Positions 8,734 to 28,514 of a DNA stretch of 52,740 nt are shown in pieces; positions within the stretch are counted from its first letter, which is position 1; every line of letters starts with the position of its first letter. The DNA comes from a bacterium (GTDB lineage Bacteria > Actinomycetota > UBA4738 > HRBIN12). Both the position numbers and the translations under genes were made by a program. The notes below the pieces were generated by a model that saw only the letters and a program-made list of their open reading frames with translations, had not been told where the DNA came from and ran no database searches. The DNA lies in the NCBI GenBank assembly GCA_023251895.1, contig JAHEXX010000001.1, forward strand, positions 18,965 through 71,704. Direction: 5' to 3'.

Positions 8734-8746
8734 CCCGGCACTCTCC

Positions 8747-10019: not shown

Positions 10020-10154
10020 TTAGCAGGATTCCGCCCCGATTTCGATGTCAATCGCTGCGACTGTGGGGGTGAGGGAGACGCATTTCATCTACTACGTATA
10101 TCGATTAGGTTACACTTTTCAAGTTAGCCTGTCGATGACCCGGAGGCAAACGTC

Positions 10155-11821: not shown

Positions 11822-12609
11822 GCGATGTGGCACCCGCGCTCCTCGGCCGGAAGGCCGTCGTCACGGGCGGGTCGAAAGGCCTTGGTCGCGCAATCGCGGC
11901 GGAGCTCGCATCCCACGGCGCCGACGTCGCTGTGTGCGCCCGGGGCAGTGATGCATTGGCCATCGCGGCCGGGGAGCTGCGAGCGAGCGGTCGCGTGATC
12001 CACGCGCAGGTCGCCGACGTCACGGTCGCGGAGCAGGTCCGGGACTTCGTCGCTGCGTCCGCCGAGGCGCTGGGCGGGATCGACATCCTCGTGAACAACG
12101 CCGGTGCGGCGCACCCGGGGACGTTCGAGACACTCACGGACGGGGACTGGCAGGCGGACTTGGATGTGAAGCTCTTCTCGATGATCCGCTGCAGCCGGGA
12201 GGTTATCCCTCACATGCGGCGCCGGGGCGGGGGTCGGATCATCAACATCAACGCGGTGTACGGCCGCTATCCCGACCCCACGTTCTTCGCTACGTCCGTG
12301 AACCGGGCTGCCTGCCTGGCCTTCACGAAGACCCTCGCTGTGCAACTCGCCCCGGCGGGGATCCTGGTCAACAGCGTGAACGTAGGGTTCGTCGTGACCT
12401 CGCAGTGGAAGAACATCCACCGGCAACGAGCCCCGGCGATGAGTGAGGAGGAGTTCTTCGAAGGCATGGCGCGCGGCGAGGTCCCCCTAGGGCGCTTCGG
12501 CCGGCCGGATGAGGTCTCCGGGATCGTGACGTTCCTCGCCGGCGATCGGGCCTCCTACATCACCGGGGCGTCGATCGACGTCGCCGGCGGCATGGGAAAG
12601 TACGTTTGA
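11818..12609 (+). CDS. SDR family oxidoreductase
   Basis: GRKAVVTGGSKGLGRAIA (TGxxxGxG) and NNAG. GTGA overlap with the cupin gene. Confidence 0.85.
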   Translation: MSDVAPALLGRKAVVTGGSKGLGRAIAAELASHGADVAVCARGSDALAIAAGELRASGRVIHAQVADVTVAEQVRDFVAASAEALGGIDILVNNAGAAHPGTFETLTDGDWQADLDVKLFSMIRCSREVIPHMRRRGGGRIININAVYGRYPDPTFFATSVNRAACLAFTKTLAVQLAPAGILVNSVNVGFVVTSQWKNIHRQRAPAMSEEEFFEGMARGEVPLGRFGRPDEVSGIVTFLAGDRASYITGASIDVAGGMGKYV

Positions 12610-12856
12610 CGGGAGGCGGAACGACCTAGCCATTAGTGAGCGAGCCTCCGACCGACCAGCTTGGGTGTCCCGCGAGGCGCACGGTTCCTGCACTTGGCTC
12701 CACCGACGGCAATGTGTCCCCAGCTGCCGCGCATCTCCCGTACGTCCCGTTCGATCGGCTCGGCGTTTGGATTCCTTCCCGGGGCACAGGTCCGAGTTGG
12801 TCCCTTGGTCCATGCCAGGGAGCACAGGCCGCTCGGCGGGGGTCCGGCACCACCTG

Positions 12857-12930
12857 AGGTTTTGACACCGCTCCGGCTGATCTTTGACGTCGGATGATCT
12901 TTGACGGTGGCTGCGGATGATGCTTGACGG
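12857..12930. repeat. Four spaced (T/C)TTGAC boxes; three sit in a longer GAT(G/C)ATCTTTGACG-like unit, upstream of the transposase fragment
   Basis: gctGATCTTTGACGt (12876-12890), GATGATCTTTGACGg (12893-12907), GATGATGCTTGACGg (12916-12930), plus ggTTTTGACac at about 12859-12868. Confidence 0.5.
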
Positions 12931-12984
12931 CGGCCCTTCTGACCCTTCGCCTTGTCTCGGCCCCGGTCGAGGAGGGGGTGGGCC

Positions 12985-13179
12985 GTGCTGGTGGAGCTCA
13001 GCGTCATGGAACAGCCGTACCAGGCGGTGCTGGCGGTGGTGCAGAACGGCTGGAAGGTCGTCGAGGTCGCCCGGCGACTCGGAGTCAGCAAGCCTCGTCG
13101 CGACAAGATTCGCCAGATCGTAGCCGCCGATGGGGCGCGGCCAGGCAGAGACCCCCAGCGGCAGCCACCCGATCCCTGA
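12985..13179 (+). pseudogene. IS481-like transposase, N-terminal HTH fragment only
   Basis: VLVELSVMEQPYQAVLAVVQNGWKVVEVARRLGVS resembles the N-terminus of actinobacterial IS481-family transposases (recalled). The GTG is preceded by GAGGAGGGGG. The frame ends after 64 codons with no DDE domain. Confidence 0.6.
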
Positions 13180-13185
13180 GCCTCA

Positions 13186-13212
13186 GGTGACGCCGGAGCG
13201 TCCGGCGTCACC
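13186..13212. other. Perfect 12-bp-stem hairpin (GGTGACGCCGGA gcg TCCGGCGTCACC) at the junction of two IS fragments
   Basis: Read directly from the sequence; it starts 7 nt after the stop of the transposase fragment. Confidence 0.7.
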
Positions 13213-13265
13213 CAGAACACGACACTGGTCCGTGCCCCCGGGAGTGTGGAGCTGACGGTGTTCGC

Positions 13266-13385
13266 TCACACCGGACTCGTGGTTTTCTCGCGGGGTCTCT
13301 TATAGGGCGTCTGGCCCCCGAGCCCCCAGTGTGGACGGTTGTAGTTGTAGAAGTCCTCCCACTCCTGGAGGCGATCCCAATCGGT
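13266..13385 (-). pseudogene. DDE transposase (IS481/IS3-type integrase core), C-terminal 39-codon fragment
   Basis: Own translation: TDWDRLQEWEDFYNYNRPHWGLGGQTPYKRPREKTTSPV*. The FYNxxRPHxxLGGxTP tail is characteristic of rve-type transposases. A stop codon lies immediately upstream. Confidence 0.6.
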
Positions 13386-13564
13386 TCATCGCGGGGATCC
13401 CGGCAACATGGGTCCCAGTGTTCAGTATGTCGAATGGACGAGATTTCGCCTATCGGCCCTGACACTCGCCTTGTGCAGGCAATCTGTACGGCGCCGGGCC
13501 CGCGATTTGCCCTCCACCTGACCTCTGTTTAGTATCGCGAACGGTCCACTTGCCCTGGGGGTGC

Positions 13565-14737
13565 ATGATGAGGACACGGTCAGAAGAATCCTTGCCGTTT
13601 CGCCTGAGCCGACGGGACCTGCTTCGTCACGGGGTGAAAGGTGCAGGAGTCCTGGTGGCTGTCGGTCCGCTCTCAGCAATCCTCGCCGCGTGCGGAGGAG
13701 GGGAGAAGGGCGGAGGCGGCGGTTCTCCGACCGCAGGCAGCACGGGTCCTGGTATCACGGCTGCTCAGATCCAGAACGCGAGCGGCACCGTGAAAGTGCT
13801 GGGCTGGGAGTGGTACAAGGTTCCCGAATCGAACCCCCCGGGTCTCACGGTGAAATGGGGCTACCTGTCCGCGAACGAGGACACGATTACCAAGACCCAA
13901 CAGCCTGGGACGTTCGACTTGTTGACGATCTTTCAGGGGGAGATCGACCAGCTCCTCGCCGTGGACCGGATCGTGCCGATCGACGTCACTCTCATCCCCA
14001 ATTTCACCGCGATGAACTCAATGTTCCAGAACACCGATGTGATTCGGCGTGACGGCCAGGTCTACGCCGTCCCCTTCCAATGGGGCTATGCCTACGTTAC
14101 CTACGACTCGCGTCAAACGAGCGCGCCGACGTCCCTGGACGACCTCATGTCGCCCTCACTCAAGAAGAAGATCGGAGTTCCAGACGATCCCTACGCGGTC
14201 ATCACGACCTTCGCGAAGCTAACCGGATTCGACAATGCGAATCGGCTCACACCGGACCAGTTTCAGCAGGTCCTGAACACCATGCACGCATTCAAGCCAC
14301 AACTGCGAACGATATATACATACGGCGAAGCGCCGCAGCTGCTCGGGCGCCAGGACATCGCTATCGCGTTCCCGGAGTTTGGGCCGACCGTCCTAGATGC
14401 TACGAAGGCAGGAGCGGATGCCCATATGCAGCTGCTCGCCGCGTGGAGCTACGTCGATTGCCTCATGATCGTGAAGTCAACAGCCAACCTGGCTGGGGAC
14501 TACGGGTGGATCAATCAGGCGATCGGGGAGCAGTCGGAGGCCGCCGTGTCCGCGAACGGCCTTGCCTTCCCCGTGGTCGACGCTGCGGTCACGGCCCTTC
14601 CGAAATCGCTCCAGTACACGACCCCAACGGACATCCTGAATGAGGCACCGCTGCAGCCCGGCCCCCCGATCGACAGTAGTCAGGGCTTCGTCCCGTTCCA
14701 AGACTGGCTCAGCGCGTGGAATGACTACAAGTCCTAG
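13565..14737 (+). CDS. ABC transporter substrate-binding lipoprotein, spermidine/putrescine (PotD/PotF)-like, with a Tat-type signal
   Basis: SRRDLLRHG twin-arginine motif followed by the lipobox LAAC. The extracellular binding protein reads directly into the permease and ATPase genes. Confidence 0.75.
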   Translation: MMRTRSEESLPFRLSRRDLLRHGVKGAGVLVAVGPLSAILAACGGGEKGGGGGSPTAGSTGPGITAAQIQNASGTVKVLGWEWYKVPESNPPGLTVKWGYLSANEDTITKTQQPGTFDLLTIFQGEIDQLLAVDRIVPIDVTLIPNFTAMNSMFQNTDVIRRDGQVYAVPFQWGYAYVTYDSRQTSAPTSLDDLMSPSLKKKIGVPDDPYAVITTFAKLTGFDNANRLTPDQFQQVLNTMHAFKPQLRTIYTYGEAPQLLGRQDIAIAFPEFGPTVLDATKAGADAHMQLLAAWSYVDCLMIVKSTANLAGDYGWINQAIGEQSEAAVSANGLAFPVVDAAVTALPKSLQYTTPTDILNEAPLQPGPPIDSSQGFVPFQDWLSAWNDYKS

Positions 14738-16535
14738 GCTGGCGGGAAGCGAGCTAGGGCTTGGAGCAGATCTGCGTGCCTCGCCCGAAGGGCCGGGGGG
14801 ACGAGCATGTCTTCTGGCACCCGGGGCGATACCCCTGTCCTCGTACCTGCTGGTCTTCCTGGCATTGCCTGTGGGCGTCCTTGCGCTGTACAGCGTCTGG
14901 ACGGCTGGGTTCTTCACTGTTATCCGACAGTTCACGCTTGCGAACTACGCGAAGGTCTTCTCGGACGCTACCTACCGGGTTCTGTTCCTCAAGACGCTCG
15001 GAATCGGGCTCGTCTGCGCGACCCTGCTTGTGGTCTGCGGCTTCGCCATGGCCTATGCGATCACATTCAAGCTCGTGCGGTGGGGTCCTCGGATCCTGGT
15101 TCTGGTCACGGCGACCCTTCTCGCGAGCTACCTCGTTCGCATCTACGCGTGGAAGGCGATCCTGGGTGACCAGGGACTGCTGAACCGGGTCCTGCTCGAC
15201 ATCGGAGTGATTGCGCAACCCTTGAGGTTCCTGCTGTACGGCTACTTCGCGATCGTGCTCACTCTCGTCTACGTCTACTTGCCCTTCTCGGTGTTGCTCA
15301 TCTATGCCGGCCTGCAGAATATCGATAGCCAGGTCTTCGAAGCCTCGCGCGATCTTGGCGCCAGCAGGTTCCGCACTTTTCGGAAGGTGACCTTGCGGCT
15401 CGCTGCTCCGGCATTGTGGGTAGCGTTTGCCGTGTGCTTCATCCTGACCACTGCCGACTACGTGACCCCGCAGCTGGTGGGCGGGCTCCAGGGCCAGATG
15501 GTGGGACGGGTGATCAGCGACCAATTCGGAGGGGGCGCAAACTACCCCCTGGGCGCTGCTATGTCTATGGTCCTCGTAGTCGCGATGGCGGTCACACTCG
15601 CCATCTGTTACGCGGTAGCTCGGATCCTTGCGGTGGCCGGGCGGCGCTTGAGCGCCGCCGTGCGGAATCTTCGGTCGGTGGAAGAGCGGACTATTCGACG
15701 CCGGCAGTTCTTCGGACGAGTTGTGCATGGGTTTCCGTATACGGAAACCCTCACGGCGGCGTTGCTCCTGTTCCTCATTCTTCCGCTGGCCGTGGTCATC
15801 GTCTTCTCTCTGAACAGAGCAGACATACCCGGTCTTCCCTTCAAAGGCGTGACGCTCCGTTGGTACGGTGAGGTGATGCGCCAAGCGGAGTTCCGGGCTG
15901 TGCTGTGGACGAGTGTGCGCGTCATGGCAATGTCGGTTATCGCGAGTCTCCTGATCGGGGTCCCGGCGGCGTTTGCGCTTGTGCGGAAGCAGTTTCGACT
16001 CAGTGGCGTCGTCCGGACCACGGTCTTTGGCCCGGTGGCGATCCCTGGGGTGGTGATCGGGGTAGCGCTGCTCACAACATTTGTCTTCCTCAGCATCCCC
16101 CTCGGTCTTCTGCCGATAGCGGTTGCCCACACACTTCTCCTTGCTCCCTATGTAGTTTTGGTGGTCCGTTCGAGGCTCCTAGAGATGGACCCACGTATTG
16201 AGGAGGCAGCTCGCGATCTTGGCTCCGGCCGCCGGCGCGTATTCCGAACGATCACGTTGCCTCTTTTGCTTCCTTCTCTGATCGGTGCCGCTCTCTTGTG
16301 CGCCGCCATCTCACTCGACGATGTCATCGTGACGAACTTCGTCAGTGGGACAAGTCCCACTGTTCCCGTGTGGATTCTGGGTGTGATGCGACGGACCTTT
16401 ACTCCAACTGTCAACGCGGTCGCGGTGCTCATCCTGGGGGGGAGTCTGATGCTCATTGCCATCTCGGCGGTTGTCTTCCGCCGCGGCCGAACCACACGAC
16501 TCACCCAGATCGTGGCTGGAGGCCACGGTGTTTGA
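14721..16535 (+). CDS. Fused ABC transporter permease (PotB-like plus PotC-like halves in one polypeptide)
   Basis: Two EAA-loop motifs (EASRDLGASRFRTFRKVTLRLAAP and EAARDLGSGRRRVFRTITLPLLLPS) and about 12 hydrophobic segments. The start is uncertain: ATG 14721 overlaps the SBP gene by 17 nt; ATG 14640 is the alternative. Confidence 0.8.
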   Translation: MTTSPRLAGSELGLGADLRASPEGPGGRACLLAPGAIPLSSYLLVFLALPVGVLALYSVWTAGFFTVIRQFTLANYAKVFSDATYRVLFLKTLGIGLVCATLLVVCGFAMAYAITFKLVRWGPRILVLVTATLLASYLVRIYAWKAILGDQGLLNRVLLDIGVIAQPLRFLLYGYFAIVLTLVYVYLPFSVLLIYAGLQNIDSQVFEASRDLGASRFRTFRKVTLRLAAPALWVAFAVCFILTTADYVTPQLVGGLQGQMVGRVISDQFGGGANYPLGAAMSMVLVVAMAVTLAICYAVARILAVAGRRLSAAVRNLRSVEERTIRRRQFFGRVVHGFPYTETLTAALLLFLILPLAVVIVFSLNRADIPGLPFKGVTLRWYGEVMRQAEFRAVLWTSVRVMAMSVIASLLIGVPAAFALVRKQFRLSGVVRTTVFGPVAIPGVVIGVALLTTFVFLSIPLGLLPIAVAHTLLLAPYVVLVVRSRLLEMDPRIEEAARDLGSGRRRVFRTITLPLLLPSLIGAALLCAAISLDDVIVTNFVSGTSPTVPVWILGVMRRTFTPTVNAVAVLILGGSLMLIAISAVVFRRGRTTRLTQIVAGGHGV

Positions 16536-17673
16536 TTCCACCGTCGAGGCGTCTGCCCAGGGCGCCGCCCGAACCCATGTTCCGTCACTCTTGTCCCTGC
16601 GGCACGTTCGCAAGGAGTTCGACGGGTTAGTCGCAGTCCGCGAGGTTGATCTCGATGTGCGGGAAGGAGAATTCATCACGTTGCTCGGCCCTTCTGGGTG
16701 CGGAAAGACGACGCTGCTGCGGATGATTGCCGGTTTCGAGCGCCCCACCGCTGGCAGCATCCTCCTGGAGGGCGAGGATATCGTCAGGTGGCCTCCCGAG
16801 CTGCGGCCCTTCAACATGGTTTTCCAGAACTACGCCCTCTTCCCTCACTTGACCGTCTTCGACAACGTGGCCTACGGCCTGCGCACGGCGAGAGTCCCCG
16901 AAGAGGTGGCTCGCCGGCGCGTGTTGTCAGCCCTGGAGATGGTGGGGCTCGAAGACCGTGCTGCCGTGAACGTGAAAGCGCTATCAGGGGGCCAGCAGCA
17001 GCGCGTGGCGTTGGTGCGGGCCATCGTGAACGAGCCCAAGGTGCTCCTGCTTGACGAGCCGTTGGGCGCCCTAGACCTCAAACTGCGCAAACGCATGCAG
17101 GACGAGTTGCGAGCGATCCAGCGCCGCGTCAACACCACTTTCATCTACGTGACGCACGACCAAGAAGAGGCGTTGGTCATGAGCCATCGAATCGTTCTGA
17201 TTCGGGATGGGCAGTTGGTGCAGGTAGGCACTCCCGAGGACGTCTATCAGCGCCCGCAAACTCGTTTCGTCGCTGAGTTCGTGGGCGAAGCCAACATGCT
17301 GGGCTGTTCCGTGCTGGGGCGGGAGGCGGACGGAATCCGCGTCCGTCTCGACCTCACCGGTTATGAGGCTGTTTTCGCCTACTACGGGAGCGATCGATTG
17401 GACCCCGGCGAGCCGGGGCTCGTGGCCGTGCGGCCGGAGCACCTGCACGTCGCGCCACCCGAGCAAGCCGACTTCGTAGGTCTGTTGGCAGGCCGCGTGC
17501 TTCTGGGTCCTGTCGTCATCTACGAGATTGCATTGGCCTCTGACTACGTGGTTCGCGCACAGGCCCAACCGACCGACAACGTCGAGATTGGGGCCCGTGT
17601 GGGAGTTTCGGTACTGCCGGGTCGGGGAGTCTTGGTTCACCGAGAGGAGAGCGCCATTGAGCCCACCGACTGA
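16528..17673 (+). CDS. ABC transporter ATP-binding protein (PotA-like)
   Basis: Walker A GPSGCGKTT, signature LSGGQQQR, Walker B LLLDEP. The GTG at 16528 is preceded by GGAGG and overlaps the permease stop. Confidence 0.9.
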   Translation: MFDSTVEASAQGAARTHVPSLLSLRHVRKEFDGLVAVREVDLDVREGEFITLLGPSGCGKTTLLRMIAGFERPTAGSILLEGEDIVRWPPELRPFNMVFQNYALFPHLTVFDNVAYGLRTARVPEEVARRRVLSALEMVGLEDRAAVNVKALSGGQQQRVALVRAIVNEPKVLLLDEPLGALDLKLRKRMQDELRAIQRRVNTTFIYVTHDQEEALVMSHRIVLIRDGQLVQVGTPEDVYQRPQTRFVAEFVGEANMLGCSVLGREADGIRVRLDLTGYEAVFAYYGSDRLDPGEPGLVAVRPEHLHVAPPEQADFVGLLAGRVLLGPVVIYEIALASDYVVRAQAQPTDNVEIGARVGVSVLPGRGVLVHREESAIEPTD

Positions 17674-17737
17674 ATCGCGTGCCCAGGCTCGTGGAGCCCC
17701 AAGGGCTGAGGTTGAAGCCGGACGTGGAGCGCAGTCG

Positions 17738-18274
17738 TTGGGTGCCCGTGTCAAACGACTTCGCGCGGATCGCGGGCTGAGTTTGCGCGAGCTCGCCTCG
17801 ACGAGCGGCGTCAGTGCAAGCCTTCTCTCCCAGCTCGAGCGCGACCGGGCAAACCCCAGCATCGCCACGCTCCAGCGGGTTGCCCAGAGTCTAAGAGTCT
17901 CGATCTTCGCCCTCCTGCCGGAGGATGGATCGAGCGGAGCCACCGTGGTTCGTCCAGACAACCGACGCAAGCTCGTGATTCAGGACGGGCAGCTCCGATA
18001 CGAGCTCTTGTCGCCGGATACGAATCGACAAATGGAAGTCTGGATAGGACGCCTGAGGGCTGGGGCACAGATGGGCTCGGAAACGTCCAGCCATCCCTCG
18101 GAGGAGTTCATCCTCGTCTTGCGTGGCCAGATGGAGATCACCATCGGCGCTGATACGCACCGACTCGAGGAGGGGTGCTCCATCCAATACGACGGGCACA
18201 TGCCCCACCGCATCACGAATGTGGGTGAGGAGGAGTTGGTGCTCCTATCTGCCCTTACCCCTCCGACGTTGTAG
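17738..18274 (+). CDS. XRE-family HTH plus C-terminal cupin transcriptional regulator (PuuR-like architecture)
   Basis: LGARVKRLRADRGLSLRELASTSGVSASLLSQLERDRANPSIATLQRVAQSL (HTH_3), then HPSEEFILVLRGQMEI...GHMPHRITN (cupin). The TTG start is inferred. Confidence 0.75.
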   Translation: MGARVKRLRADRGLSLRELASTSGVSASLLSQLERDRANPSIATLQRVAQSLRVSIFALLPEDGSSGATVVRPDNRRKLVIQDGQLRYELLSPDTNRQMEVWIGRLRAGAQMGSETSSHPSEEFILVLRGQMEITIGADTHRLEEGCSIQYDGHMPHRITNVGEEELVLLSALTPPTL

Positions 18275-18284
18275 GAGCATTCCG

Positions 18285-19451
18285 ATGAAGGTCACCAACA
18301 TAAAAGCCATCCCGTACCGGCTCCCGATCCGCCGAGACTTCGGCTGGGCGGGGCTGCATGTGGGCATAGGCAATTTCGTCCTCATTCGGGTTCGAACTGA
18401 TGAGGGATTGGAGGGTCTCGGTGAGGCGGTGCCTCTCGCGGAGTGGGGCGGCGATCACAACCGACGGGCGGGCGAGACGCAGGAAACGGTTGTTCACGTC
18501 GTTGAAGACCTCCTTCGCCCACACCTTGTCGGCGAGGACGCACTCGACGTCGAGCGAATCACCGCGAGGATGGACGCCGTCGTGCGGGGGCACTCCTACG
18601 CCAAGGCCGCTATCGACATCGCCCTTCACGACTTGCTCGGCAAGAAGGCGGGGCTTCCCCTCTACAAGGTTCTGGGTGGAGCTTTCCGCGATGCTGTACC
18701 CGTGGCCCACATGGTCGGTTTGATGCCGCCCGAGGAGGCCGTCGAGGAGGCAGCTGCAGCCATCGCGGACGGCGTTTCCTCGCTCCAGGTGAAGGGCGGT
18801 GTAGACCCCTCGCGCGACGAGACTGTCGTCGGGGCCCTCCGCGAGCGCTTCGGGCCCGAGGTGTGGCTGCGACTCGACGCGAACCAGGGATACGGCGAAG
18901 TCTCTAGCGCTGTCCGTATCTTGCGGCGGATGGAGCCGATGGGCCTGAACTTCGTGGAGCAACCGGTCTCCGGGGTGCGGCAGCTCGCCCAGGTCCGGCA
19001 CGAGGTGCGGACGCCCATCATCGCGGATGAGAGCTGCTGGGATGCGCAAGACGCCCTGGAGTGCGTGCAGTACGAGGCAATGGACGCCATCTCAATCTAC
19101 TTGGCCAAGGCCGGGGGAATCGCTGGGGCTAGGAAGGTGGCAGCGGTCGCCTGGGCCGCGGGTCTGCCATGCGATGTAAACGGTTCGATCGAGTCGGGCG
19201 TGGGCAACGCCGCGAACGTGCACTTCGCCATCGCGACACCCGCAGTGTCCCTGCCATGCGTGATTCCGGTTACGGCGCCTGCTGGGACGGCGCCGTTCGC
19301 GACGGCAGGGCATTACTTCGAGGACGATATCGTCACACGCGCCTTCGGCGTGACCCAAGACAGTGCCCTGCTTCCGCCGGAGGGGGCGGGGCTGGGAGTG
19401 GAGATCGACGACGAGAAGCTGGAGCGATTCCGTGTCGACCACGGTCGGTGA
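18285..19451 (+). CDS. Mandelate racemase / muconate lactonizing enzyme (enolase superfamily) protein
   Basis: LRLDANQGY, FVEQP and IIADES (the Asp/Glu/Asp metal-ligand spacing). AGGAG lies 7 nt upstream of the ATG. Confidence 0.85.
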   Translation: MKVTNIKAIPYRLPIRRDFGWAGLHVGIGNFVLIRVRTDEGLEGLGEAVPLAEWGGDHNRRAGETQETVVHVVEDLLRPHLVGEDALDVERITARMDAVVRGHSYAKAAIDIALHDLLGKKAGLPLYKVLGGAFRDAVPVAHMVGLMPPEEAVEEAAAAIADGVSSLQVKGGVDPSRDETVVGALRERFGPEVWLRLDANQGYGEVSSAVRILRRMEPMGLNFVEQPVSGVRQLAQVRHEVRTPIIADESCWDAQDALECVQYEAMDAISIYLAKAGGIAGARKVAAVAWAAGLPCDVNGSIESGVGNAANVHFAIATPAVSLPCVIPVTAPAGTAPFATAGHYFEDDIVTRAFGVTQDSALLPPEGAGLGVEIDDEKLERFRVDHGR

Positions 19452-20625
19452 GTACCTTGAGCGGCAGGCCCGCTTCGCCAAACGCCTTGCTGCCACCGGG
19501 CTTGCGGGCGGTCTGGTCGTCTCACGGGGCGGCGGCACCTACGATCGCTCCGGCGATGTGCTCTACCTGACCGGGCACTACCAGCCCTACGTCTACCTCC
19601 CTGAAAACCCACCCCGGTGGTCGGGTCGATCACACACCGCATTCCTCATCAAGGCTGATGGAGGCGGAGCCCTCTGCGTCTCGGTGAAAAGGGAGCATGG
19701 CCACGGCCCACTCGCTGCGGACGACGTCCGCAGCGGCGGGGACTTCGTCGAGACCGTGATTGCGACTGCTCGGGATCTCGAGCTTTCACGGGGGCAGGTT
19801 GGCCTGGTGGGGCTCGACGCGCTTCCGGGAAGCCTGTGGGACCGGCTCAGGGCGGGCCTTCCTGAGGTGGTGTTCGTGCAGGCGGATGAGGAGCTTGCGG
19901 CGCTCCGGCGCATCAAGAGTGAAGCCGAGGTAGAGCTCATCCGCGCCGCCTCGACAATGGGCCGACGCGCCGTGACGGCCTTCCTCGGGGCGTTGAAGCC
20001 AGGCGTCACCGAATCTGAGGCGGTGTCCGCCGCAGTGGCCTCAGTCGTCGCCGACGGTGGCGCAGTCTACCTCGCTACGTCCTCGTCCGGCCCATGGACA
20101 TGGTCCTACACCACTACGCCGCTCCCGGGGTACGGCACGCGGCGCCTAGAGGAAGGTGACCTCGTCCGGTTCGACCTTGTCTCGGTGCTTGCGGGCTACT
20201 TCTCGGACTTCGGCCGAACCGTGGTGGTGGGAGACCCCTCCCTGGCCCAGCAGCGCCTACTCGATGCGCTTCATGCCGGGCTGGATGCCGCGATTGCTGC
20301 AGTGCGTCCAGGGGCGCTCGCCCGCGATGTGGCTGCAGCAGGCAACGCCGCGCTCGCGGAGCGGGGCGTTGCTCTTGGGCTAGAGGAGGATGGAGAGCTG
20401 CAGGCCGCCTACCCGCCGCACTGGGGTCACGGGCTCGGTTTGGGGTGGGAGCGGCCATGGTTCGTGGAAGACGAGGATCTCGTGCTGGAGACCGGGATGT
20501 ACCTGGCTCTGGAGCGTGCCCTCACCGCCGATGGCGTGGGGAGCGCGGCGGCCGAGCAAAACCTTCTCGTGTTGGAAGGCGGCCCGGAGGTCCTCACCGA
20601 GGGCCCAGAAGGGCGGTGGTCTTGA
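19432..20625 (+). CDS. M24 family metallopeptidase (Xaa-Pro peptidase / creatinase-type pita-bread fold)
   Basis: IKSEAEVELIRAAS, FDLVSVLAGYFSDFGRT, GHGLGL, and a late E...E pair. The GTG at 19432 overlaps the upstream gene end. Confidence 0.8.
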   Translation: MSTTVGEYLERQARFAKRLAATGLAGGLVVSRGGGTYDRSGDVLYLTGHYQPYVYLPENPPRWSGRSHTAFLIKADGGGALCVSVKREHGHGPLAADDVRSGGDFVETVIATARDLELSRGQVGLVGLDALPGSLWDRLRAGLPEVVFVQADEELAALRRIKSEAEVELIRAASTMGRRAVTAFLGALKPGVTESEAVSAAVASVVADGGAVYLATSSSGPWTWSYTTTPLPGYGTRRLEEGDLVRFDLVSVLAGYFSDFGRTVVVGDPSLAQQRLLDALHAGLDAAIAAVRPGALARDVAAAGNAALAERGVALGLEEDGELQAAYPPHWGHGLGLGWERPWFVEDEDLVLETGMYLALERALTADGVGSAAAEQNLLVLEGGPEVLTEGPEGRWS

Positions 20626-20629
20626 GCCA

Positions 20630-21835
20630 ATGGGGCACGCCAAGATCGAGGCTGACCCGGTTGAAGTCGCCGCCAAGCTGATCCGACGTCCCTGTCTCTC
20701 CGGCGCCGAGGGCGAGATGGCCGACGCAGTAGAGGAGTTCTTGAACGACCTGGGCTACCGGGAGGTGTTCCGTGACCGGCTCGGGAACCTGGTGGGCATC
20801 ATCGGTCCGAACGCGGGGGAGTCGGTTCGGGTCCTCTTCGACGGTCACATGGACGTCGTGCCGCCCGCGGGCGAGTGGTCGGTGAACCCCTTCGACGGCA
20901 TCGTGCGGGACGGGCGGCTCTTCGGGCGCGGCGCAACCGACATGAAAGGAGGCCTCGCTGCGGCCTTGTGCGGCGTCGTGGCAGCGGCAAACGACCTGTC
21001 GCATCCCGTGGCTGTCTCCGCGACCGTGCTCGAAGAGACGATTGAGGGGGTGGCCCTCGGCGAGGTGCTCGATCGTTTGCATCCCGATGCCGTCGTGATC
21101 TGTGAGCCTTCCGGGATGCAGGTGAAGGTCGGCCAGCGCGGTCGCGCCGAAGTACTCCTCACCGCACACGGCGTCCCGGCGCACGCCGCCTCGCCAGAGC
21201 GGGGGCGAAACCCGATCACGCTGATGGCCCAGGCTCTAAGTCGGATCGAGTTAATGGAGTTGCCGATTGACCAGACGCTCGGACCGGCGATCATCGTAGC
21301 CACCGACGTAGTCTCCGATCCGTATCCCTCGATATCGCTGATCCCTTCGAGTGTCACCGTCCGATTCGACAGGCGGACGCTGTTAGACGAGGACGCCCAA
21401 GGGGTGCTCGCCGAGCTACTTGCTGTTGTGGATGGCCTCGACGGGCGGGGGTTCTCGGCCGCGATCACCGCCGACGAGGTGGAGACCTACACGGGCGAGC
21501 GACTACAGGTTGAACGCTACCTGCCAGCCTGGGTGTTGCCGATCGATCACCCGCTGGCCCTGGCGATGACCAGTGCGGTGGCCGCGGCAGGCACGCCGGT
21601 CGAGCTCGGTGTGTGGGGGTTCTGCACTAATGGCTCCGAATCGGCCGGGGTCCGCGGGATCCCAACGATCGGATTTGGCCCCGGATCTCCCGAGGAAGCG
21701 CACATCATCGACGAATCCATCTCGGTGGAGGAGGTCCGGACCGCGGCAGAAGTCTACCGACGACTTGCCATCGCGTACGCAGGGGAGGCAGCTGATGACG
21801 ACGAACGCCACGACGCCGGCCATCGAGGAGGTTGA
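20630..21835 (+). CDS. M20 family metallopeptidase (ArgE/DapE/YgeY-like deacylase)
   Basis: FDGHMDVVPPAGEW...PFDG...GRLFGRGATDMKGG is the M20 signature. Confidence 0.85.
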   Translation: MGHAKIEADPVEVAAKLIRRPCLSGAEGEMADAVEEFLNDLGYREVFRDRLGNLVGIIGPNAGESVRVLFDGHMDVVPPAGEWSVNPFDGIVRDGRLFGRGATDMKGGLAAALCGVVAAANDLSHPVAVSATVLEETIEGVALGEVLDRLHPDAVVICEPSGMQVKVGQRGRAEVLLTAHGVPAHAASPERGRNPITLMAQALSRIELMELPIDQTLGPAIIVATDVVSDPYPSISLIPSSVTVRFDRRTLLDEDAQGVLAELLAVVDGLDGRGFSAAITADEVETYTGERLQVERYLPAWVLPIDHPLALAMTSAVAAAGTPVELGVWGFCTNGSESAGVRGIPTIGFGPGSPEEAHIIDESISVEEVRTAAEVYRRLAIAYAGEAADDDERHDAGHRGG

Positions 21836-22805
21836 CACCGATCTGCTTCGGCAGATGTATCGCACGATGGCCCTGATTCGGGAGGCGGAGGAGACGCTCC
21901 TCAAGCTGTTCCAGCAGGCGCGCATGCCAGGCTTCATCCACTCCTACATCGGGGAAGAGGCCACCGCCGTCGGCGTATGCAGCTCGCTGCGGCCCGACGA
22001 CTACATCACGTCGCACCACCGAGGTCACGGGCACATCCTGGCCAAAGGTGGGGACCTCAAGCTGTTCTTCGCTGAACTCTACGGGAAGGCCACCGGATAT
22101 TGCAGGGGCAAGGGCGGCTCGATGCACGTAGCGGATCTGAGCCTCGGGATCCTTGGTGCGAACGGCGTCGTCGGGGCAGGGATCCCCATCGCCGCCGGTG
22201 CGGCGCTGGGCGCTCAGATGCGAGGGAGCGACCGCGTGGCGGTCGCGTTCACGGGCGACGGTGCGAGCGACATCGGTTCCTTCCACGAATCGCTGAACCT
22301 GGCTGCGCTCTGGGACCTTCCAACTATCTGCGTCGTGGAGAACAACGGTTATGCCGACTTCATCTCCCAGCGCGACCACCAGAAGATCGAGAAGATTTCC
22401 GAGCGCGCCGCCGCCTACGGGATGCCCGGGATCACGGTCGACGGGAACGATGTGATCGCCGTGTACTTGGCCGCGAAGGAGGCGGTGGATCGGGCACGCG
22501 CAGGACACGGACCCACGTTGATCGAGTGCGTCACGTATCGATGGCGGGGCCACTTCGAGGGCGATCCTCAGCCCTACCGCACGCAAGACGAGGTCGAAGA
22601 ATGGAAACAGCGTGATCCGTTGAAGACAGCGGAGCGTTACCTGCGTGAGCGCGACGCCGTCTCCGACGGCGAGAGAGAAGACATGCTGACGGAGATCCGC
22701 GCTGCCATCGACGAGGCCGTGGAGTTCGCAGAGTCGGCGCCGATGCCAGCACCTGAGGACGCGTTGGAAGATATCTACACCGACCTCGTCGTGGAGGGGT
22801 GGTAG
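21795..22805 (+). CDS. Thiamine-diphosphate-dependent 2-oxoacid (acetoin/pyruvate-type) dehydrogenase E1 alpha subunit
   Basis: LLRQMYRTMALIREAEE, HSYIGEEA, TSHHRGHGH, GDGASDIGSFHESLNLAALWDLP and VENNGYA (TPP motif). The ATG at 21795 follows GGGGAGG and overlaps the M20 gene by 41 nt. Confidence 0.85.
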   Translation: MTTNATTPAIEEVDTDLLRQMYRTMALIREAEETLLKLFQQARMPGFIHSYIGEEATAVGVCSSLRPDDYITSHHRGHGHILAKGGDLKLFFAELYGKATGYCRGKGGSMHVADLSLGILGANGVVGAGIPIAAGAALGAQMRGSDRVAVAFTGDGASDIGSFHESLNLAALWDLPTICVVENNGYADFISQRDHQKIEKISERAAAYGMPGITVDGNDVIAVYLAAKEAVDRARAGHGPTLIECVTYRWRGHFEGDPQPYRTQDEVEEWKQRDPLKTAERYLRERDAVSDGEREDMLTEIRAAIDEAVEFAESAPMPAPEDALEDIYTDLVVEGW

Positions 22806-22807
22806 AC

Positions 22808-23779
22808 ATGGCGACCATGACGTATGCGAAGGCGGTGGGTCTTGCCCTCGGTGAAGCGATGGAAGAGGACGACCGAGTGTTCTGCCTCGGCGAGGACGTT
22901 GGGTACGGCGGGGCTTACGGTGCGACTCAAGGTCTACGAGAAAGGTTCGGGCCGGACCGCGTGCGCGACACGCCGATCTCGGAGATCGCGATCGTCGGGT
23001 TCTCTGTCGGCGCAGCGGTGACAGGACTGCGACCCGTGCCAGAGATCATGCACTTCGACTTCATCACGGTCGCCATGGACCAGGTCGTGAACCAGGCAGC
23101 AAAGATGCGGTACATGTTTGGTGGCAAAGCCACCCTCCCACTCGTGATCCGTTGCGGCACGGGGGGTTGGCTGAACGCCGCTGCACAACACTCCCAGTCG
23201 CTCGAGGCGTGGTTCACGCATGTGCCCGGGCTCAAAGTGGCGGCGGCTGGCACGCCGGCGGACATCCGCAACTTGCTGCGAGCGGCGATCCGCGACGAGA
23301 ACCCCGTGATCGTTCAGGAGGCTTTGAGCCTCTACGAGGAGAGTGGGGAGGTGCCCGACGAAGCAGAGGAGTGGGAGCTCGGCACGGCGATGACGAAGCG
23401 GCCCGGGACAGATGTAACCCTCGTGACCTGGGGGGCGATGGTACCTCGGGTCCTCGACGCGTCGGAGATGCTGGCTGCCGACGGGATCGAAGCCGAGGTC
23501 ATCGATCTGATCTCGCTTTTTCCGTGGGACCGCGACGCGGTACTCGAATCGGTCGCCCGTACCAACCGACTGGTCGTTGTCCATCAGGCAGTCAGGCGGA
23601 GCGGGTTCGGGGCTGAGGTTGTCGCAGAGATGGCCGAGAGGGCGTTCGATCATCTGGATGCTCCGATCCTGAGGGTCGCCGCGCTGAACACGCCGGTCCC
23701 GTTCAGCCCGCCACTCGAGGAGTATGTCCTGCCGACGGCCGATCGAGTGGTCGATGCCGTGAAGTCGATCGCCGCATGA
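22808..23779 (+). CDS. 2-oxoacid dehydrogenase E1 beta subunit
   Basis: MTYAKAVGLALGEAMEEDDRVFCLGEDVG...RVRDTPISE is the typical transketolase-like beta subunit N-terminus. Confidence 0.9.
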   Translation: MATMTYAKAVGLALGEAMEEDDRVFCLGEDVGYGGAYGATQGLRERFGPDRVRDTPISEIAIVGFSVGAAVTGLRPVPEIMHFDFITVAMDQVVNQAAKMRYMFGGKATLPLVIRCGTGGWLNAAAQHSQSLEAWFTHVPGLKVAAAGTPADIRNLLRAAIRDENPVIVQEALSLYEESGEVPDEAEEWELGTAMTKRPGTDVTLVTWGAMVPRVLDASEMLAADGIEAEVIDLISLFPWDRDAVLESVARTNRLVVVHQAVRRSGFGAEVVAEMAERAFDHLDAPILRVAALNTPVPFSPPLEEYVLPTADRVVDAVKSIAA

Positions 23780-24537
23780 CCCTCATCGGCGAGCTCGATG
23801 GGGTCCGGGCCATCGTGACCGGCGCTGGTCGTGGACTGGGCCGCGGGATCGCGCTCGGGCTGAGGCAGCGGGGGGCGGCGGTGGCGGCCCTGGACATCGA
23901 TGAAGACGCCGCTCGATCGGTCGCGGACGAGCTGGCGGTCGATGGTGCAAAGAGCATGGCGGCAGGCGTTGATGTCACGGACGAACGAAGTGTCCAAGCG
24001 GCGGTCGAGAAGGTCGTCGAAGGCCTCGCCGGCATCGACCTGCTCGTAAACAACGCCGGCGTGCTCACCATCGCTCGTGTCGTAGACCTTTCGCTTGCAG
24101 AGTGGCGGAGGGTTATGGACGTAAACGCAACGGGCGTGTTTCTCATGACCCGAGAGGTAGCGCGCGTGATGATGAGAGGCGAGGGAGCGCGCTCGATCGT
24201 GTCGATTTCGTCGATCGCTGGCAAGCGGGGCGATCCCGAGCTCGCTCACTATTCCGCTTCGAAGTTCGCTGTCATTGGCTTCACCCAAGCCCTTGCACGG
24301 GAGCTCGCGACGCATGGGATTACGGTGAACGCCGTTTGTCCTGGCCTCGTTGAGACTGAGATGATCATCTCCCTCGGGCAGAGCTGGGGGGAATCGGTGG
24401 AAGAGATGCTCCAGGCGCAGGCGATCCGCCGTCCCCAGACCGCCGAAGAGATCGCGGCGGCAATCTCCTTCCTCCATCGCAGCCGTTCCGTAACCGGCCA
24501 AGCGATCAACGTCGACGGAGGAACCGTCTTCAACTGA
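23776..24537 (+). CDS. SDR family oxidoreductase (acetoin reductase / 3-hydroxyacyl dehydrogenase-like)
   Basis: AIVTGAGRGLGRGIA, NNAG and YSASK. ATGA overlap with the E1 beta gene. Confidence 0.85.
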   Translation: MTLIGELDGVRAIVTGAGRGLGRGIALGLRQRGAAVAALDIDEDAARSVADELAVDGAKSMAAGVDVTDERSVQAAVEKVVEGLAGIDLLVNNAGVLTIARVVDLSLAEWRRVMDVNATGVFLMTREVARVMMRGEGARSIVSISSIAGKRGDPELAHYSASKFAVIGFTQALARELATHGITVNAVCPGLVETEMIISLGQSWGESVEEMLQAQAIRRPQTAEEIAAAISFLHRSRSVTGQAINVDGGTVFN

Positions 24538-24552
24538 AGTCCGCAGGGGGGA

Positions 24553-25782
24553 GTGAGCGACTGGATGGCCGAGATCGTTGTGATGCCAAAGATCGGGCTC
24601 ACAGCCAAGGAGGCGTTACTCAGAGAGTGGCTCGTGGATGAAGGCCAGCAGGTTTCGGCGGGCGAGCCTCTGATGGAGATCGAAACGGACAAGATCGTCA
24701 CCGAAGTGGAGTCTCCGGCGACAGGGGTTCTCCTGAGGCGCATCGAGCCAGACGTCGTCGTGCCAGTGGGTGAACCCATTGCAGTGATCGGCGATGCGAC
24801 GGAAGACGTGACGGCGGCGCCACTGTTCGACGCCGCGCGAGCAGCCGAGGTCGAGTTGAGGGCTGAGGTAGACATGGCACCCGAGCGTATGGCCGAGCCT
24901 CGGTCGGGCGAACGGACGCCGCGCGCCGGCGCGGGACGGCTAAGTGCCTCGCCGGTCGCCCGCAAACGTGCGAAGGAGTTGGGCCTAGACCTGTCCGCAA
25001 TCGTGGGGACGGGTCCGGGAGGCCGCATCACGATTCGGGATATCGAGAAGTCAGCTGCTCATCCTTTGATCTCGATCACCTCGACGGCCGCCCCTTCTCC
25101 GTCGGCCGAGGGTCGGGCGGAGGAACCGTCCAGGCTTCGCAGGGCGATCGCAAATGCAATGTCCTTGAGTGCGGCGGTGCCCCAGTTCTCGCTGGAACGG
25201 GACCTGGACGTGACCGGCCTTCAGGCGAATCTAGCGGAGCGCTCGTTCGGCCTTCCAGCGCCCCTCAGCCTCGCGGACGCGATCGGGGTCGCCGTGGCGA
25301 GGGCAATTCGACGCCACGAGGTCTTCCTGCGCTCGTGGGACGAGGGCGTGTTTCGGTACGCGGAGGGCGTCCACATCGGCATCGCGGTCGCGGTGGAAGA
25401 CGGTCTCATCGTGCCTGTCCTGACCAACGCGGATCGGCTCACGGTGGAGGCATTCTCGTCCGCCCGGCGTGATCTGCAGGAGCGGACACTTGCAGGCCAC
25501 CTCCGCGCGCAGGAGTCGACCGGTGCTGTGTTTACAATCTCCAACCTCGGTCCGTTCGGCGTTGACCGGTTTCGCGCCTTGGTTAACCCGCCCGAGTCGG
25601 GAATCTTGGCAATCGGTCGCGCTAAGGGGAGCGGCGGGCGCTCGACGTTGACTCTAACCCTATCCGCGGACCATCGGGTCGTGGATGGTGTCCAAGGAGC
25701 GCGCCTCATGGACGATATCGCTCGGTCTCTGGAGGATGATGACGGCCACGAGAAGCTATTCGGCCCGCCCGGCGCCGAGTAA
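24553..25782 (+). CDS. Dihydrolipoamide acyltransferase (E2) component
   Basis: Lipoyl domain EIETDKIVTEVESP, subunit-binding domain SPVARKRAKELGLDLSAIVGTGPGGRITIRDIE, and catalytic LSADHRVVDG. ATG 24565 is an alternative start. Confidence 0.9.
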   Translation: MSDWMAEIVVMPKIGLTAKEALLREWLVDEGQQVSAGEPLMEIETDKIVTEVESPATGVLLRRIEPDVVVPVGEPIAVIGDATEDVTAAPLFDAARAAEVELRAEVDMAPERMAEPRSGERTPRAGAGRLSASPVARKRAKELGLDLSAIVGTGPGGRITIRDIEKSAAHPLISITSTAAPSPSAEGRAEEPSRLRRAIANAMSLSAAVPQFSLERDLDVTGLQANLAERSFGLPAPLSLADAIGVAVARAIRRHEVFLRSWDEGVFRYAEGVHIGIAVAVEDGLIVPVLTNADRLTVEAFSSARRDLQERTLAGHLRAQESTGAVFTISNLGPFGVDRFRALVNPPESGILAIGRAKGSGGRSTLTLTLSADHRVVDGVQGARLMDDIARSLEDDDGHEKLFGPPGAE

Positions 25783-26355: not shown

Positions 26356-26443
26356 GAGCACCGGATCGCCTTTAGCGGAGCTAACCCTTGGTGCGAGAGG
26401 GGGGATTCGAACCCCCACGCCCTTTCGGGCACCGGATCCTAAG
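26356..26443. repeat. Right copy of the 88-bp direct repeat (att-like), overlapping the 3' 55 nt of tRNA-Leu
   Basis: Identical to 1024-1111. Confidence 0.9.
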
Positions 26444-26476
26444 TCCGGCGCGTCTCCCAGGTTCCGCCACTCTCGC
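26389..26476 (-). tRNA. tRNA-Leu (anticodon TAG), CCA encoded
   Basis: Reverse complement: GCGAGAG..CCGGA CTTAGGA TCCGG, long variable arm TGCCCGAAAGGGCG, GGGGG TTCGAAT CCCCC, then CTCTCGC A CCA. Total 88 nt and a full cloverleaf. Confidence 0.9.
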
Positions 26477-28223: not shown

Positions 28224-28514
28224 GGGGGTCCCCTCCTTTCTCGGCGGAACGCCGATATGCAGGGTGCTACTTATGCACAGGGTGGCCTCGGGATGCAACT
28301 CGGAACCGACCGTGCAACGGAAACCGTCGACGAATCGCGGAACGACCGACGCGAAGGTGCAAGAATGCGGCGTGCCCTTGCAGTCGGTTTGCACGTTGCT
28401 CCGAGTTGGCGATAGCGTCACGCGCAGATTCCGTCCCCCAACGATCGTGGAGGTGGGCGCCGTGCAGGCGACGATCGGGAATCGGCCGCGTGTTCGCTTC
28501 GGATCCGGTCCGAC

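Follow-up and report, generated by a model that had tools for sequence, protein, structure and literature searches.

Organization of the gene block

The DNA considered here is a stretch of 52,740 nucleotides (nt), hereafter the window, from an actinomycetotal bacterium of the HRBIN12 lineage (GenBank assembly GCA_023251895.1, contig JAHEXX010000001.1, positions 18,965 to 71,704). On its plus strand, between positions 13568 and 25782, lies a block of eleven genes encoding an importer, a regulator, an enolase superfamily enzyme, two metallohydrolases and a module of the acetoin dehydrogenase (Aco) type. The block is probably one co-transcribed, mobile catabolic operon for a small nitrogen-containing compound with an alpha-carboxylate, a reading held with moderate confidence and based on gene order, conservation and protein similarity. 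All of its components come from known superfamilies and its back half is a recognisable Aco module, so that the operon is an undescribed one assembled from known kinds of parts.

The genes were delimited from a six-frame listing of open reading frames (ORFs) and inspection of start codons, and the family of each protein was assigned by Pfam and NCBIfam profile searches. These searches have confirmed the families proposed for all eleven genes in an earlier reading of the sequence alone (the sequence-only reading). The genes are as follows.

13568 (or 13565)-14737, plus strand: substrate-binding protein (SBP), a lipoprotein; SBP_bac_6 and SBP_bac_8
14721-16535, plus strand: fused PotB/PotC-like ATP-binding cassette (ABC) permease of 604 amino acids (aa); two BPD_transp_1 stretches
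16528-17673, plus strand: PotA-like ABC ATPase; ABC_tran and TOBE_2
17657-18274, plus strand: XRE-cupin regulator; HTH_3 and Cupin_2
18285-19451, plus strand: MR/MLE enzyme of the enolase superfamily, MLE subgroup; MR_MLE_N and MR_MLE_C
19432-20625, plus strand: M24 metallohydrolase of the pita-bread fold; Peptidase_M24 (110.8 bits) and a weak Creatinase_N
20630-21835, plus strand: M20 hydrolase of the YgeY-like deacylase/ureidohydrolase type; Peptidase_M20 and M20_dimer
21795-22805, plus strand: E1 alpha, thiamine diphosphate (ThDP)-dependent, AcoA type; E1_dh (307.9 bits)
22808-23779, plus strand: E1 beta, AcoB type; Transket_pyr and Transketolase_C
23776-24537, plus strand: classical short-chain dehydrogenase/reductase (SDR), acetoin/butanediol-reductase-like; TGxxxGxG, NNAG and YxxxK motifs in the translation
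24565 (or GTG 24553)-25782, plus strand: E2, complete; Biotin_lipoyl, E3_binding and 2-oxoacid_dh
13507-13535, plus strand: candidate promoter ahead of the block, TTGCCC, 17 nt and TAGTAT, followed by a GGGGG ribosome-binding site

As had been read from the sequence, the genes are co-directional and tightly packed, with junctions ranging from -41 to +27 nt; in gene order these measure -17, -8, -17, +10, -20, +4, -41, +2, -4 and +27 nt. The ATGA and GTGA couplings that had been described are represented by one literal ATGA, between E1 beta and the SDR, the remaining junctions being longer overlaps or short gaps. When E1 alpha is translated from the ATG at 21795, its product of 336 aa matches the length of the orthologues in two of the loci described below (L001 and L062, 335 aa), and with this start the 41-nt overlap between the M20 and E1 alpha genes, also previously noted, is real. 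For the SBP gene, the start codon kept in L001 is ATG 13568 and not 13565.

Inside the block, promoter-like sites (2, against 1.4 expected from shuffled sequence) and terminator-like sites (7, against 7.6) occur at chance level. The sole upstream stretch kept between the window and L001 is CTCTGTyTAGTATCGCGAAC, located about 30 nt ahead of the SBP start, and the TAGTAT in this conserved element may be read as the -10 region of the operon promoter. The L001 counterpart of the candidate promoter is TTGCGC, 18 nt and TAGTAT. The candidate fits the consensus at 8 of 12 positions, which is under the threshold of the consensus promoter scan, and a search for inverted repeats ahead of the SBP gene revealed no operator in either the window or L001.

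Conservation of gene order and genomic setting

Related loci were collected by scanning one genome per GTDB species with a profile of the MLE protein, which yielded 47 loci, and further loci were added from protein look-ups; they were compared by tblastn of the eleven window proteins and by all-against-all clustering of ORFs. The sequence-only reading had allowed for the genes being fortuitously adjacent in this genome, and its own test, a search for the same order of eleven genes elsewhere, has now been carried out. The order was found in three loci from other uncultured bacteria, one of them a metagenome contig from JGI (L001) and the others assemblies from NCBI (L062 and L063). A full-length E2 is included in each, and chance adjacency thus fails. 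The MLE protein of L001 is 74% identical to that of the window. At the nucleotide level, blastn shows L001 to be colinear with window positions 13755-25745 at approximately 70% identity, with nothing alignable beyond, and the homology reaches back to the promoter region at around 13500. The block is flanked in the window by genes for an aminotransferase, a cupin and an SDR, whereas its neighbours are arginase-family genes and a glycosyltransferase in L001, and M55 and M24 peptidases together with a sugar-type ABC system in L062. Comparison of the flanks by tblastx gave short matches only, read as composition-driven noise, and the difference between flanks rests on blastn and gene content. Since the homology is colinear from the promoter onwards and the flanks differ, the unit appears to span from the promoter to the E2 stop codon and to move as a whole.

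The proposal that the block sits on a horizontally acquired island is supported by base composition and by the features found on either side of it. The G+C content at third codon positions (GC3) is 0.74-0.80 in those block genes listed by the coding filter, against 0.77-0.93 (mostly at least 0.82) in the other plausible genes of the window. Upstream, two opposed transposase remnants, taken as traces of insertion sequences (IS), lie in a gene-free stretch of about 950 nt (12610-13550) where no GC3-supported gene is present; downstream, a tRNA gene follows the E2 gene and may represent an island boundary or insertion site.

12985-13176, plus strand: transposase remnant, a degenerate helix-turn-helix (HTH) fragment; HTH_Tnp_1 and HTH_23 below threshold
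13266-13382, minus strand: transposase remnant, C-terminal end of an integrase core; rve_3, 26.1 bits, E 7e-6; DWDRLQEWEDFYNYNRPHWGLGGQTP
26389-26476, minus strand: tRNA-Leu, anticodon TAG; ARAGORN, Rfam 56.2 bits; about 600 nt downstream of E2

Just upstream of the HTH remnant, at 12868-12930, a GATGATCTTTGACGG-like motif is present in three copies, almost in tandem, which could be an IS end or an array of binding sites. Further upstream lies another group of genes, with a Dabb-domain protein (8410-8733), a class-II glutamine amidotransferase-like protein (8747-9517) and an AsnC/Lrp regulator (9459-10019) on the minus strand, followed by the aminotransferase (10155-11378), the cupin (11375-11821) and the SDR (11818-12609) on the plus strand. 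Neither L001 nor L062 has this module (8410-12609) next to its copy of the operon, so that the module probably does not belong to the operon.

The acetoin dehydrogenase-type module

The last four genes of the block, in the order E1 alpha, E1 beta, SDR and E2, can be identified by protein similarity as a rearranged Aco module. Plasmid 1 of Paracoccus denitrificans PD1222 carries a canonical aco operon that encodes AcoA, to which E1 alpha is 52% identical, AcoB, which E1 beta matches at 47%, and downstream of acoC an SDR sharing 41% identity with that of the block; these values bear out the acoABC-type assignment made previously. In that organism the operon is ordered acoX-acoA-acoB-acoC-SDR-...-bdh-acoR and contains no gene for the lipoamide dehydrogenase (E3). 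The closest plasmid-borne relatives of E1 alpha share 49-54% identity with it and comprise generically annotated haloarchaeal genes (the top matches, 52-54%) and aco-type genes. The GDG...NN motif for ThDP binding is readable in the E1 alpha translation, and the equivalog models for pyruvate dehydrogenase E1 alpha are not passed (TIGR03182, 351.6 bits against a cut-off of 393.85; TIGR03181, 275 against 411). E1 beta passes NF006667 (359 against 321) and is 85% identical to the L001 protein. In the Protein Data Bank (PDB), the SDR is matched best, at 201 bits, by the putative acetoin (diacetyl) reductase 4weo, and the NCBIfam models for BudC and acetoin reductase each score 181 bits, below their cut-offs. 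In the E2 translation, both the lipoyl-lysine motif ETDK and an intact catalytic motif, DHRVVDG (DHRxxDG), have been detected, and its match to the AcoC model NF011457 is confined to the N-terminal 123 positions (83.5 bits against 307).

The absence of E3 from the block, already noted, extends to the whole window, where the redox-disulfide motif C-x-N-x-G-C-x-P-S/T-K occurs in none of the six frames; nor was it found in 59 related loci, over approximately 10 kb on each side. Given that the canonical Paracoccus aco operon is also devoid of E3, this is ordinary for an Aco system, and it sets the module apart from a complete 2-oxoacid dehydrogenase complex (PDH/BCKDH) with a dedicated E3 encoded alongside E1 and E2. 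The SDR had been described as wedged into the usual E1-E2 order. Its position between E1 beta and E2 is indeed rearranged, but an adjacent SDR is in itself normal in Aco operons. This position is kept in L001, L004, L009, L037, L041, L046 and L062.

The block thus has in common with the Paracoccus acoXABC system an E1 alpha/beta heteromer, a lipoyl E2, an SDR and the lack of an operon E3. It differs in that neither AcoX nor the sigma-54-dependent AcoR is encoded in the block or its flanks, an XRE-cupin regulator being present instead, in that its E2 is of the canonical CAT type, and in that the module is embedded with an importer, an enolase superfamily enzyme and two metallohydrolases. In Bacillus, AcoC is also of the CAT type. 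The substrate of the block is probably not plain acetoin, which Aco systems cleave to acetaldehyde and acetyl-CoA. Among the orthologous clusters and the window, E1 alpha is 64-79% identical, compared with 52% to the canonical AcoA, which argues for an E1 subfamily specific to these clusters.

The part of the module responsible for acyl transfer takes four forms among the relatives and, to judge from these sequences, is interchangeable. A full E2 with lipoyl, PSBD and CAT-like domains has been detected only in the window, L001 and L062/L063. Other Actinomycetota have a protein of 170-196 aa with lipoyl and PSBD domains and no catalytic domain, and in one of these loci (L041) a separate alpha/beta-hydrolase is encoded near the bare lipoyl carrier. 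In the Alphaproteobacteria, the part is an AcoC in which a lipoyl domain is fused to an alpha/beta-hydrolase and which passes NF011457 (350.7 against 307). In the Solirubrobacterales, the lipoyl and catalytic domains are two genes flanking that of the MLE enzyme. In three metagenome-assembled genomes (MAGs) of this order (L018, L021 and L054; locus positions of about 9731-11810), a lipoyl gene of around 70 aa lies upstream and a catalytic-only gene of around 230 aa downstream of the MLE gene.

The enolase superfamily enzyme

The fifth gene of the block encodes an enzyme of the MLE subgroup. A check of its catalytic residues, suggested in the sequence-only reading, has revealed both catalytic lysines (K170 and K275, expected at the ends of strands 2 and 6) and the three Mg ligands (D198, E225 and D248, expected at the ends of strands 3-5), all of which align with residues of the PDB entry 2p88. 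Within the family, K170, K275, D198 and E225 are invariant and D248 is conserved at 90% or above; the KxK motif is here QxK, its first lysine being replaced by Gln168, which is invariant as well. No curated model was passed for the named functions of the subgroup, which are muconate cycloisomerase, o-succinylbenzoate synthase (OSBS), N-succinylamino acid racemase (NSAR), Ala-Glu epimerase and cis-3-hydroxy-L-proline dehydratase. The scores, with NCBIfam cut-offs in brackets, are 200.6 (334.95) for the muconate cycloisomerase model TIGR02534, 153 (500) for the cis-3-hydroxyproline dehydratase model NF043002, 122.8 (200.65) for the OSBS model TIGR01928 and 113 (500) for NF041118. More than 1500 homologues have been detected, all of them generically named, and these comparisons place the enzyme in an uncharacterised family.

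The nearest PDB entry, at 190 bits, is 2p88, which we take to be the Bacillus cereus N-succinyl-Arg/Lys racemase, working with an M20 hydrolase as its operon partner. A pathway of N-succinylamino acid racemase and M20 hydrolase in B. cereus, with the structure 2P88, was reportedly described by Song and co-workers in 2007. The two systems are alike in that an MLE subgroup enzyme stands beside a DapE/ArgE-type M20 deacylase. The relation is nonetheless distant: the block has the QxK motif, no succinyltransferase, and an additional M24 hydrolase and Aco module, and its MLE family shows an insertion in the 20s loop (W54-G-G-D...R60-R61) and a C-terminal motif, AGHY[YF]EDD.

Two more specific assignments have been considered. 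A function as a 3-hydroxyproline-type dehydratase is a lead only, the suggestive Pyr2C/Pip2C reductase (NF004793, 408 against 322) being present in just two loci. A known opine catabolic cluster has been rejected, as the plasmid-borne MLE relatives are only 40-43% identical and stand in another context, and none was found on a Ti or Ri plasmid among the 72,556 plasmids searched. In three such plasmid loci, from Aminobacter (L056), Phyllobacterium (L058) and Shinella (L059), this distant MLE is followed by an M24 protein annotated as Xaa-Pro peptidase and a TRZ/ATZ-type amidohydrolase. An octopine/nopaline-dehydrogenase-family gene and a DpsA-like gene lie nearby, and Aminobacter additionally carries a D-amino-acid dehydrogenase and malate synthase G beside taurine genes. 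The Aminobacter M24 protein is 28% identical to that of the window (a single pair was compared), and these plasmid loci constitute another uncharacterised pairing of MLE and M24.

The two hydrolases

The nearest PDB entries to the M24 protein are prolidases, at 83 bits, followed by DoeA and creatinase at about 46 bits. The metal ligands D, D, H, E and E are readable in the translation within the motifs FDLV, SDFGRT, GHGLG, LALERA and AAAEQN, and the presence of this pattern suggests that the protein is prolidase-like rather than creatinase-like. No named family was passed among the NCBIfam models (PepQ, 61 against 630; DoeA, 47 against 613). With all scores far under the cut-offs, these models give no support for placing the protein in the ectoine hydrolase, creatinase or prolidase families.

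The M20 protein passes one of the models for the YgeY family (NF009555, 340.8 against 321) and not the other (TIGR03526, 216.3 against 321.5); it also matches the ArgE/DapE model at 155 bits and the DapE entries of the PDB at 80-90 bits. In Escherichia coli, YgeY and YgeX assayed together convert albizziin (3-ureido-2-aminopropionate) to pyruvate, and the cleavage of the 3-ureido group, by which the carbamoyl group is removed from the amino acid side chain, has been assigned by the authors to YgeY (bioRxiv 10.1101/2025.05.19.654654). Because the block protein is YgeY-like, a role as an N-carbamoyl or N-acyl hydrolase is plausible by analogy with this assignment. The partners of YgeY in the reductive uric acid pathway (ssnA, xdhD, ygeW, ygeX and hyuA) are, by contrast, found neither in the block nor in its flanks.

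The importer and the regulator

The translation of the SBP shows a twin-arginine translocation (Tat) motif, SRRDLL, and a lipobox, LAAC, in agreement with the sequence-only reading. The protein belongs to a narrow family, with 131 homologues at E<=1e-10, and its sole NCBIfam match is YdcS, at 36.7 bits. A structural model was obtained with AlphaFold (mean local confidence, pLDDT, of 88.6), and the best Foldseek matches were YdcS, PotD and PotF, with TM scores of 0.66-0.69 and 13-18% identity. Lower matches include AgtB, which binds agropinic acid, and MotA, which binds mannopine or deoxyfructosyl-glutamine. The model places the SBP in the PotD/YdcS fold cluster without revealing its ligand, and as this cluster also holds binders of opines and Amadori compounds, the label polyamine-type would describe the fold and not the ligand.

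The remaining importer subunits follow the same pattern. In the permease, PotB is matched at 183 bits (residues 68-330; cut-off 348) and PotC at 213 bits (residues 372-615; cut-off 326), and the ATPase matches PotA at 385 bits against a cut-off of 482; the NCBIfam model for PotD has no match in the block. The fusion of the two permease genes is kept in L001, L004 and L062. When compared to PotABCD, the block importer shares the ABC family, the TOBE-type ATPase and the SBP fold cluster. It differs in that all its scores fall under the equivalog cut-offs, two permease genes are fused, and the SBP forms a narrow family of its own. The polyamine-type importer that had been proposed therefore stands at the level of fold and family and not at that of orthology, and its ligand need not be a polyamine.

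The regulator presents a similar case. It has the architecture of PuuR, with an XRE-type HTH and a C-terminal cupin, and this part of the earlier assignment holds, but it is not an orthologue, scoring 69.7 bits with the PuuR model against a cut-off of 211. Unlike the putrescine utilisation context of PuuR, the block contains no Puu enzymes or puu genes.

Wider relatives and sister clusters

A core set consisting of MLE, M20, M24, E1 alpha, E1 beta, SDR, a lipoyl protein and a Pot-like transporter recurs in shuffled orders. In the Actinomycetota it has been detected in L004, L009 and L037, in L041 and partly in L024, and in the Alphaproteobacteria in Lichenihabitans (L015, L016 and L028), Phyllobacteriaceae (L025), Acetobacteraceae (L030), Rhodospirillales (L046) and L052. 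Whether the arrangement is actinobacterial or alphaproteobacterial, the M20 gene immediately precedes that of E1 alpha. In the cultured bacterium Mameliella alba (L061; GCA_019801345.1, JAHVJH010000007.1, about 110-131 kb), the genes for M20, E1 alpha, E1 beta, an HbpS-like protein, SDR and an AcoC of the lipoyl and alpha/beta-hydrolase type lie ahead of two Pot-like transporters, into one of which a PNP_UDP_1 gene is inserted; the MLE side lies beyond the fetched stretch. Accessory genes in some of the relatives encode a second SDR, an HbpS/GlcG-like protein and a PNP_UDP_1 protein among the transporter genes, as well as the Pyr2C/Pip2C reductase in Lichenihabitans and AraC-type regulators of the GlxA kind. 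More distant variants, in Solirubrobacterales, Caldilineaceae and a Bacillota MAG, keep MLE and E1 and add gamma-glutamyltransferase (GGT), a GMC oxidoreductase and further SDRs.

The families encoded next to the MLE gene were counted in 53 clustered loci anchored on it. The most frequent is the SDR (32 loci), followed by the XRE-cupin regulator, which adjoins the MLE gene in at least 26, and by GGT (24), HyuA (21), HyuB (20), E1 beta (18), E1 alpha (17), M20 (15) and M24 (11). Sister clusters with HyuA/HyuB and GGT occur, for example, in Acidisoma cladoniae, Amorphus suaedae, Bosea and Ancylobacter. Such clusters share with the block the XRE-cupin regulator, an MLE protein of 52-59% identity and often an SDR, but they have no E1/E2, M20 or M24 and carry instead ATP-dependent enzymes resembling lactamases, along with GGT, a GMC oxidoreductase or a P450, and transporters of the TRAP or another type. 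Their HyuA and HyuB best resemble the subunits of ATP-dependent caprolactamase (467 and 289 bits, far under the cut-offs), and these clusters are also uncharacterised.

When the MLE proteins are placed in a tree by neighbour joining, the contexts with E1, M20 and M24 are interleaved with those containing Hyu and GGT, and it therefore appears that the MLE enzyme and the regulator form a conserved pair whose partner sets have been swapped on several occasions. This swapping argues that the MLE enzyme acts on a shared intermediate, and the gene contexts likewise argue that the opening of a cyclic amide together with amide or ureido hydrolysis is a recurring theme around it.

Proposed function and alternative explanations

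The analysis has established the parts list, the operon structure, its conservation and the relationship to Aco, whereas the following order of steps and nature of the substrate are inferred. The Tat-exported lipoprotein SBP, the fused permease and the ATPase form an importer, with the XRE-cupin protein as the local regulator, and would take up the compound. The M24 and M20 enzymes would hydrolyse two of its C-N bonds, one in a ring or amide and the other in an N-acyl or ureido group. The MLE enzyme would abstract the alpha-proton next to a free carboxylate, and in doing so either epimerise a stereocentre for the hydrolases or eliminate a beta-substituent. A secondary alcohol of the released skeleton may then be oxidised by the SDR to an alpha-hydroxyketone or 2-oxo compound, which the Aco-type E1 would cleave with ThDP, reductively acylating the lipoyl arm of E2. 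Finally, E2 would pass the acyl group to CoA, and the lipoyl group would be re-oxidised in trans by a housekeeping E3 through the E3-binding domain of E2.

Several points weigh against this catabolic reading. The main caveat is that the MLE step may be separable from the Aco step, given that the MLE proteins are interleaved with members of the Hyu/GGT contexts that lack E1. Apart from the borderline YgeY match of the M20 protein, none of the NCBIfam models passed by an enzyme of the block is a substrate-specific equivalog. The order of the steps is our own construction, and the sequence fits an acyloin and a 2-oxo acid equally well as the substrate of E1. The proposal that the pathway ends in an acyl-CoA fits the window, where the DHRxxDG motif of E2 is intact, but since most relatives are without an E2 catalytic domain, the formation of a CoA ester is not a conserved property of the pathway. 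Naming any specific substrate class for the operon is doubtful, and the peptide-like or N-substituted amino compound of the sequence-only reading is a candidate. As a tentative extension, which we hold to be possible and not likely, the Aco-type system may cleave an amino- or amido-substituted acyloin or 2-oxo compound, within an undescribed cross-phylum pathway for a nitrogen-containing natural product; the compound would be released by an MLE enzyme of new specificity together with M24 and M20, and the acyl-acceptor part would be swappable. It could derive from a 1-amino-1-deoxyketose of the Amadori or opine-like kind, from a cyclic ureide or lactam after ring opening, or from a derivative of a beta-hydroxy-amino acid. 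The sequence-only reading had not recognised the arrangement as a described operon, and it remains so: no NCBIfam family and no full-text literature match describes this gene combination, the MLE family, the E1 subfamily or the swappable acyl-transfer part, the searches for the gene families of the block or of its sister clusters in combination having returned nothing relevant and no specific NCBIfam equivalog being available.

The eleven genes might instead be two unrelated units that happen to adjoin, one for the uptake and hydrolysis of a peptide or amine (SBP to M20) and one for ordinary acetoin or 2,3-butanediol utilisation (E1 alpha to E2). The clear homology of E1, SDR and E2 to canonical aco genes is consistent with this, as are the occurrence of the MLE family without any E1 and an island setting, which can juxtapose genes. 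It is unlikely, however, since both parts are found together in at least 12 loci of two phyla in spite of rearrangement, with M20 directly before E1 alpha in either order; the two genes overlap by 41 nt, E1 alpha belongs to a distinct subfamily (64-79% identity within it, 52% to AcoA), and the canonical accessories AcoX and AcoR are missing.

Rather unlikely too is a stereo-inversion or salvage route of the N-acyl-amino-acid-racemase type, in which E1, lipoyl protein and E2 would make an acyl donor, or the CAT-like E2 or AcoC hydrolase domain would acylate an amine, after which the MLE enzyme would racemise the N-acyl-D form and M20 deacylate the L form. Such a route would suit the nearest solved MLE relative, 2p88, if this is, as we take it to be, an NSAR with an M20 partner, and it would suit the DapE/ArgE/YgeY-like character of M20 and the M55 D-aminopeptidase and extra M24 genes flanking the L062 cluster. 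The free swapping of the acyl-transfer domain, as if the acceptor were not fixed, points the same way. It would nevertheless assign no role to M24 or the SDR, a GNAT-type N-acyltransferase is missing, the similarity to NSAR is low (190 bits, with no NSAR or OSBS cut-off passed), and some relatives are without any acyltransferase domain. A biosynthetic cluster is very improbable. In such a cluster E1 and the lipoyl protein would provide a two-carbon or acyl building block, much as glycolyl units derived from ketoses are transferred in the pathways of the tetrahydroisoquinoline antibiotics, and the peptidases would mature the product. The reduction of E2 to a lipoyl carrier without a catalytic domain in several relatives speaks for it, these bare proteins resembling the carrier-type use of lipoyl proteins. 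However, an ABC system that depends on an SBP is an importer; no genes for non-ribosomal peptide synthetases, polyketide synthases, acyl carrier proteins or tailoring enzymes are present; both the XRE-cupin regulator and the GlxA-like AraC-type regulators of the relatives belong to catabolic types; and the relatives have catabolic neighbours, such as sarcosine oxidase and arginase-family genes.

Other features of the window

An Rfam scan of the window detected tRNAs only. A pair for tRNA-Lys(CTT) and tRNA-His(GTG) lies at 42968-43163 on the minus strand, and a further tRNA on the same strand, at 52696-52740, is cut by the window end.

An ORF of 882 aa on the minus strand (26583-29231) has a coding-like GC3 of 0.84 and no Pfam match at E<=1e-4; it is overlapped on the plus strand by ORFs at 27456-28415 and 28406-29338, for which no Pfam match has been detected either. 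The plus-strand ORF of 1411 aa at 29354-33589 (GC3 0.93) has a Walker-A-like start, APTGSGKTL, and probably encodes a large helicase-family protein. It is followed on the same strand by two adjacent ORFs of 509 and 607 aa (33709-35238 and 35359-37182) with near-alike signal-peptide N-termini (LFTDGFESGLVPPWTA), which look like tandem secreted paralogues and lie in the highest-GC part of the window (72-74%).

Implications

The compact boundaries of the operon, from the promoter to the E2 stop codon, and its movement as one unit make it tractable by heterologous expression, and Mameliella alba, being cultured, would be useful as an experimental host. Should the substrate prove mundane, the block would be one more specialised catabolic island. 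The swapping of the acyl-transfer part, between a full E2, an AcoC fusion, a bare carrier and split genes, constitutes a natural experiment in modular 2-oxoacid/acyloin dehydrogenase complexes. A solved substrate would give a function to an orphan MLE family, in which none of the more than 1500 homologues passes a functional model, and to a distinct subfamily of Aco-type E1, and it would add a new route for the mineralisation of nitrogen compounds by soil and marine bacteria.

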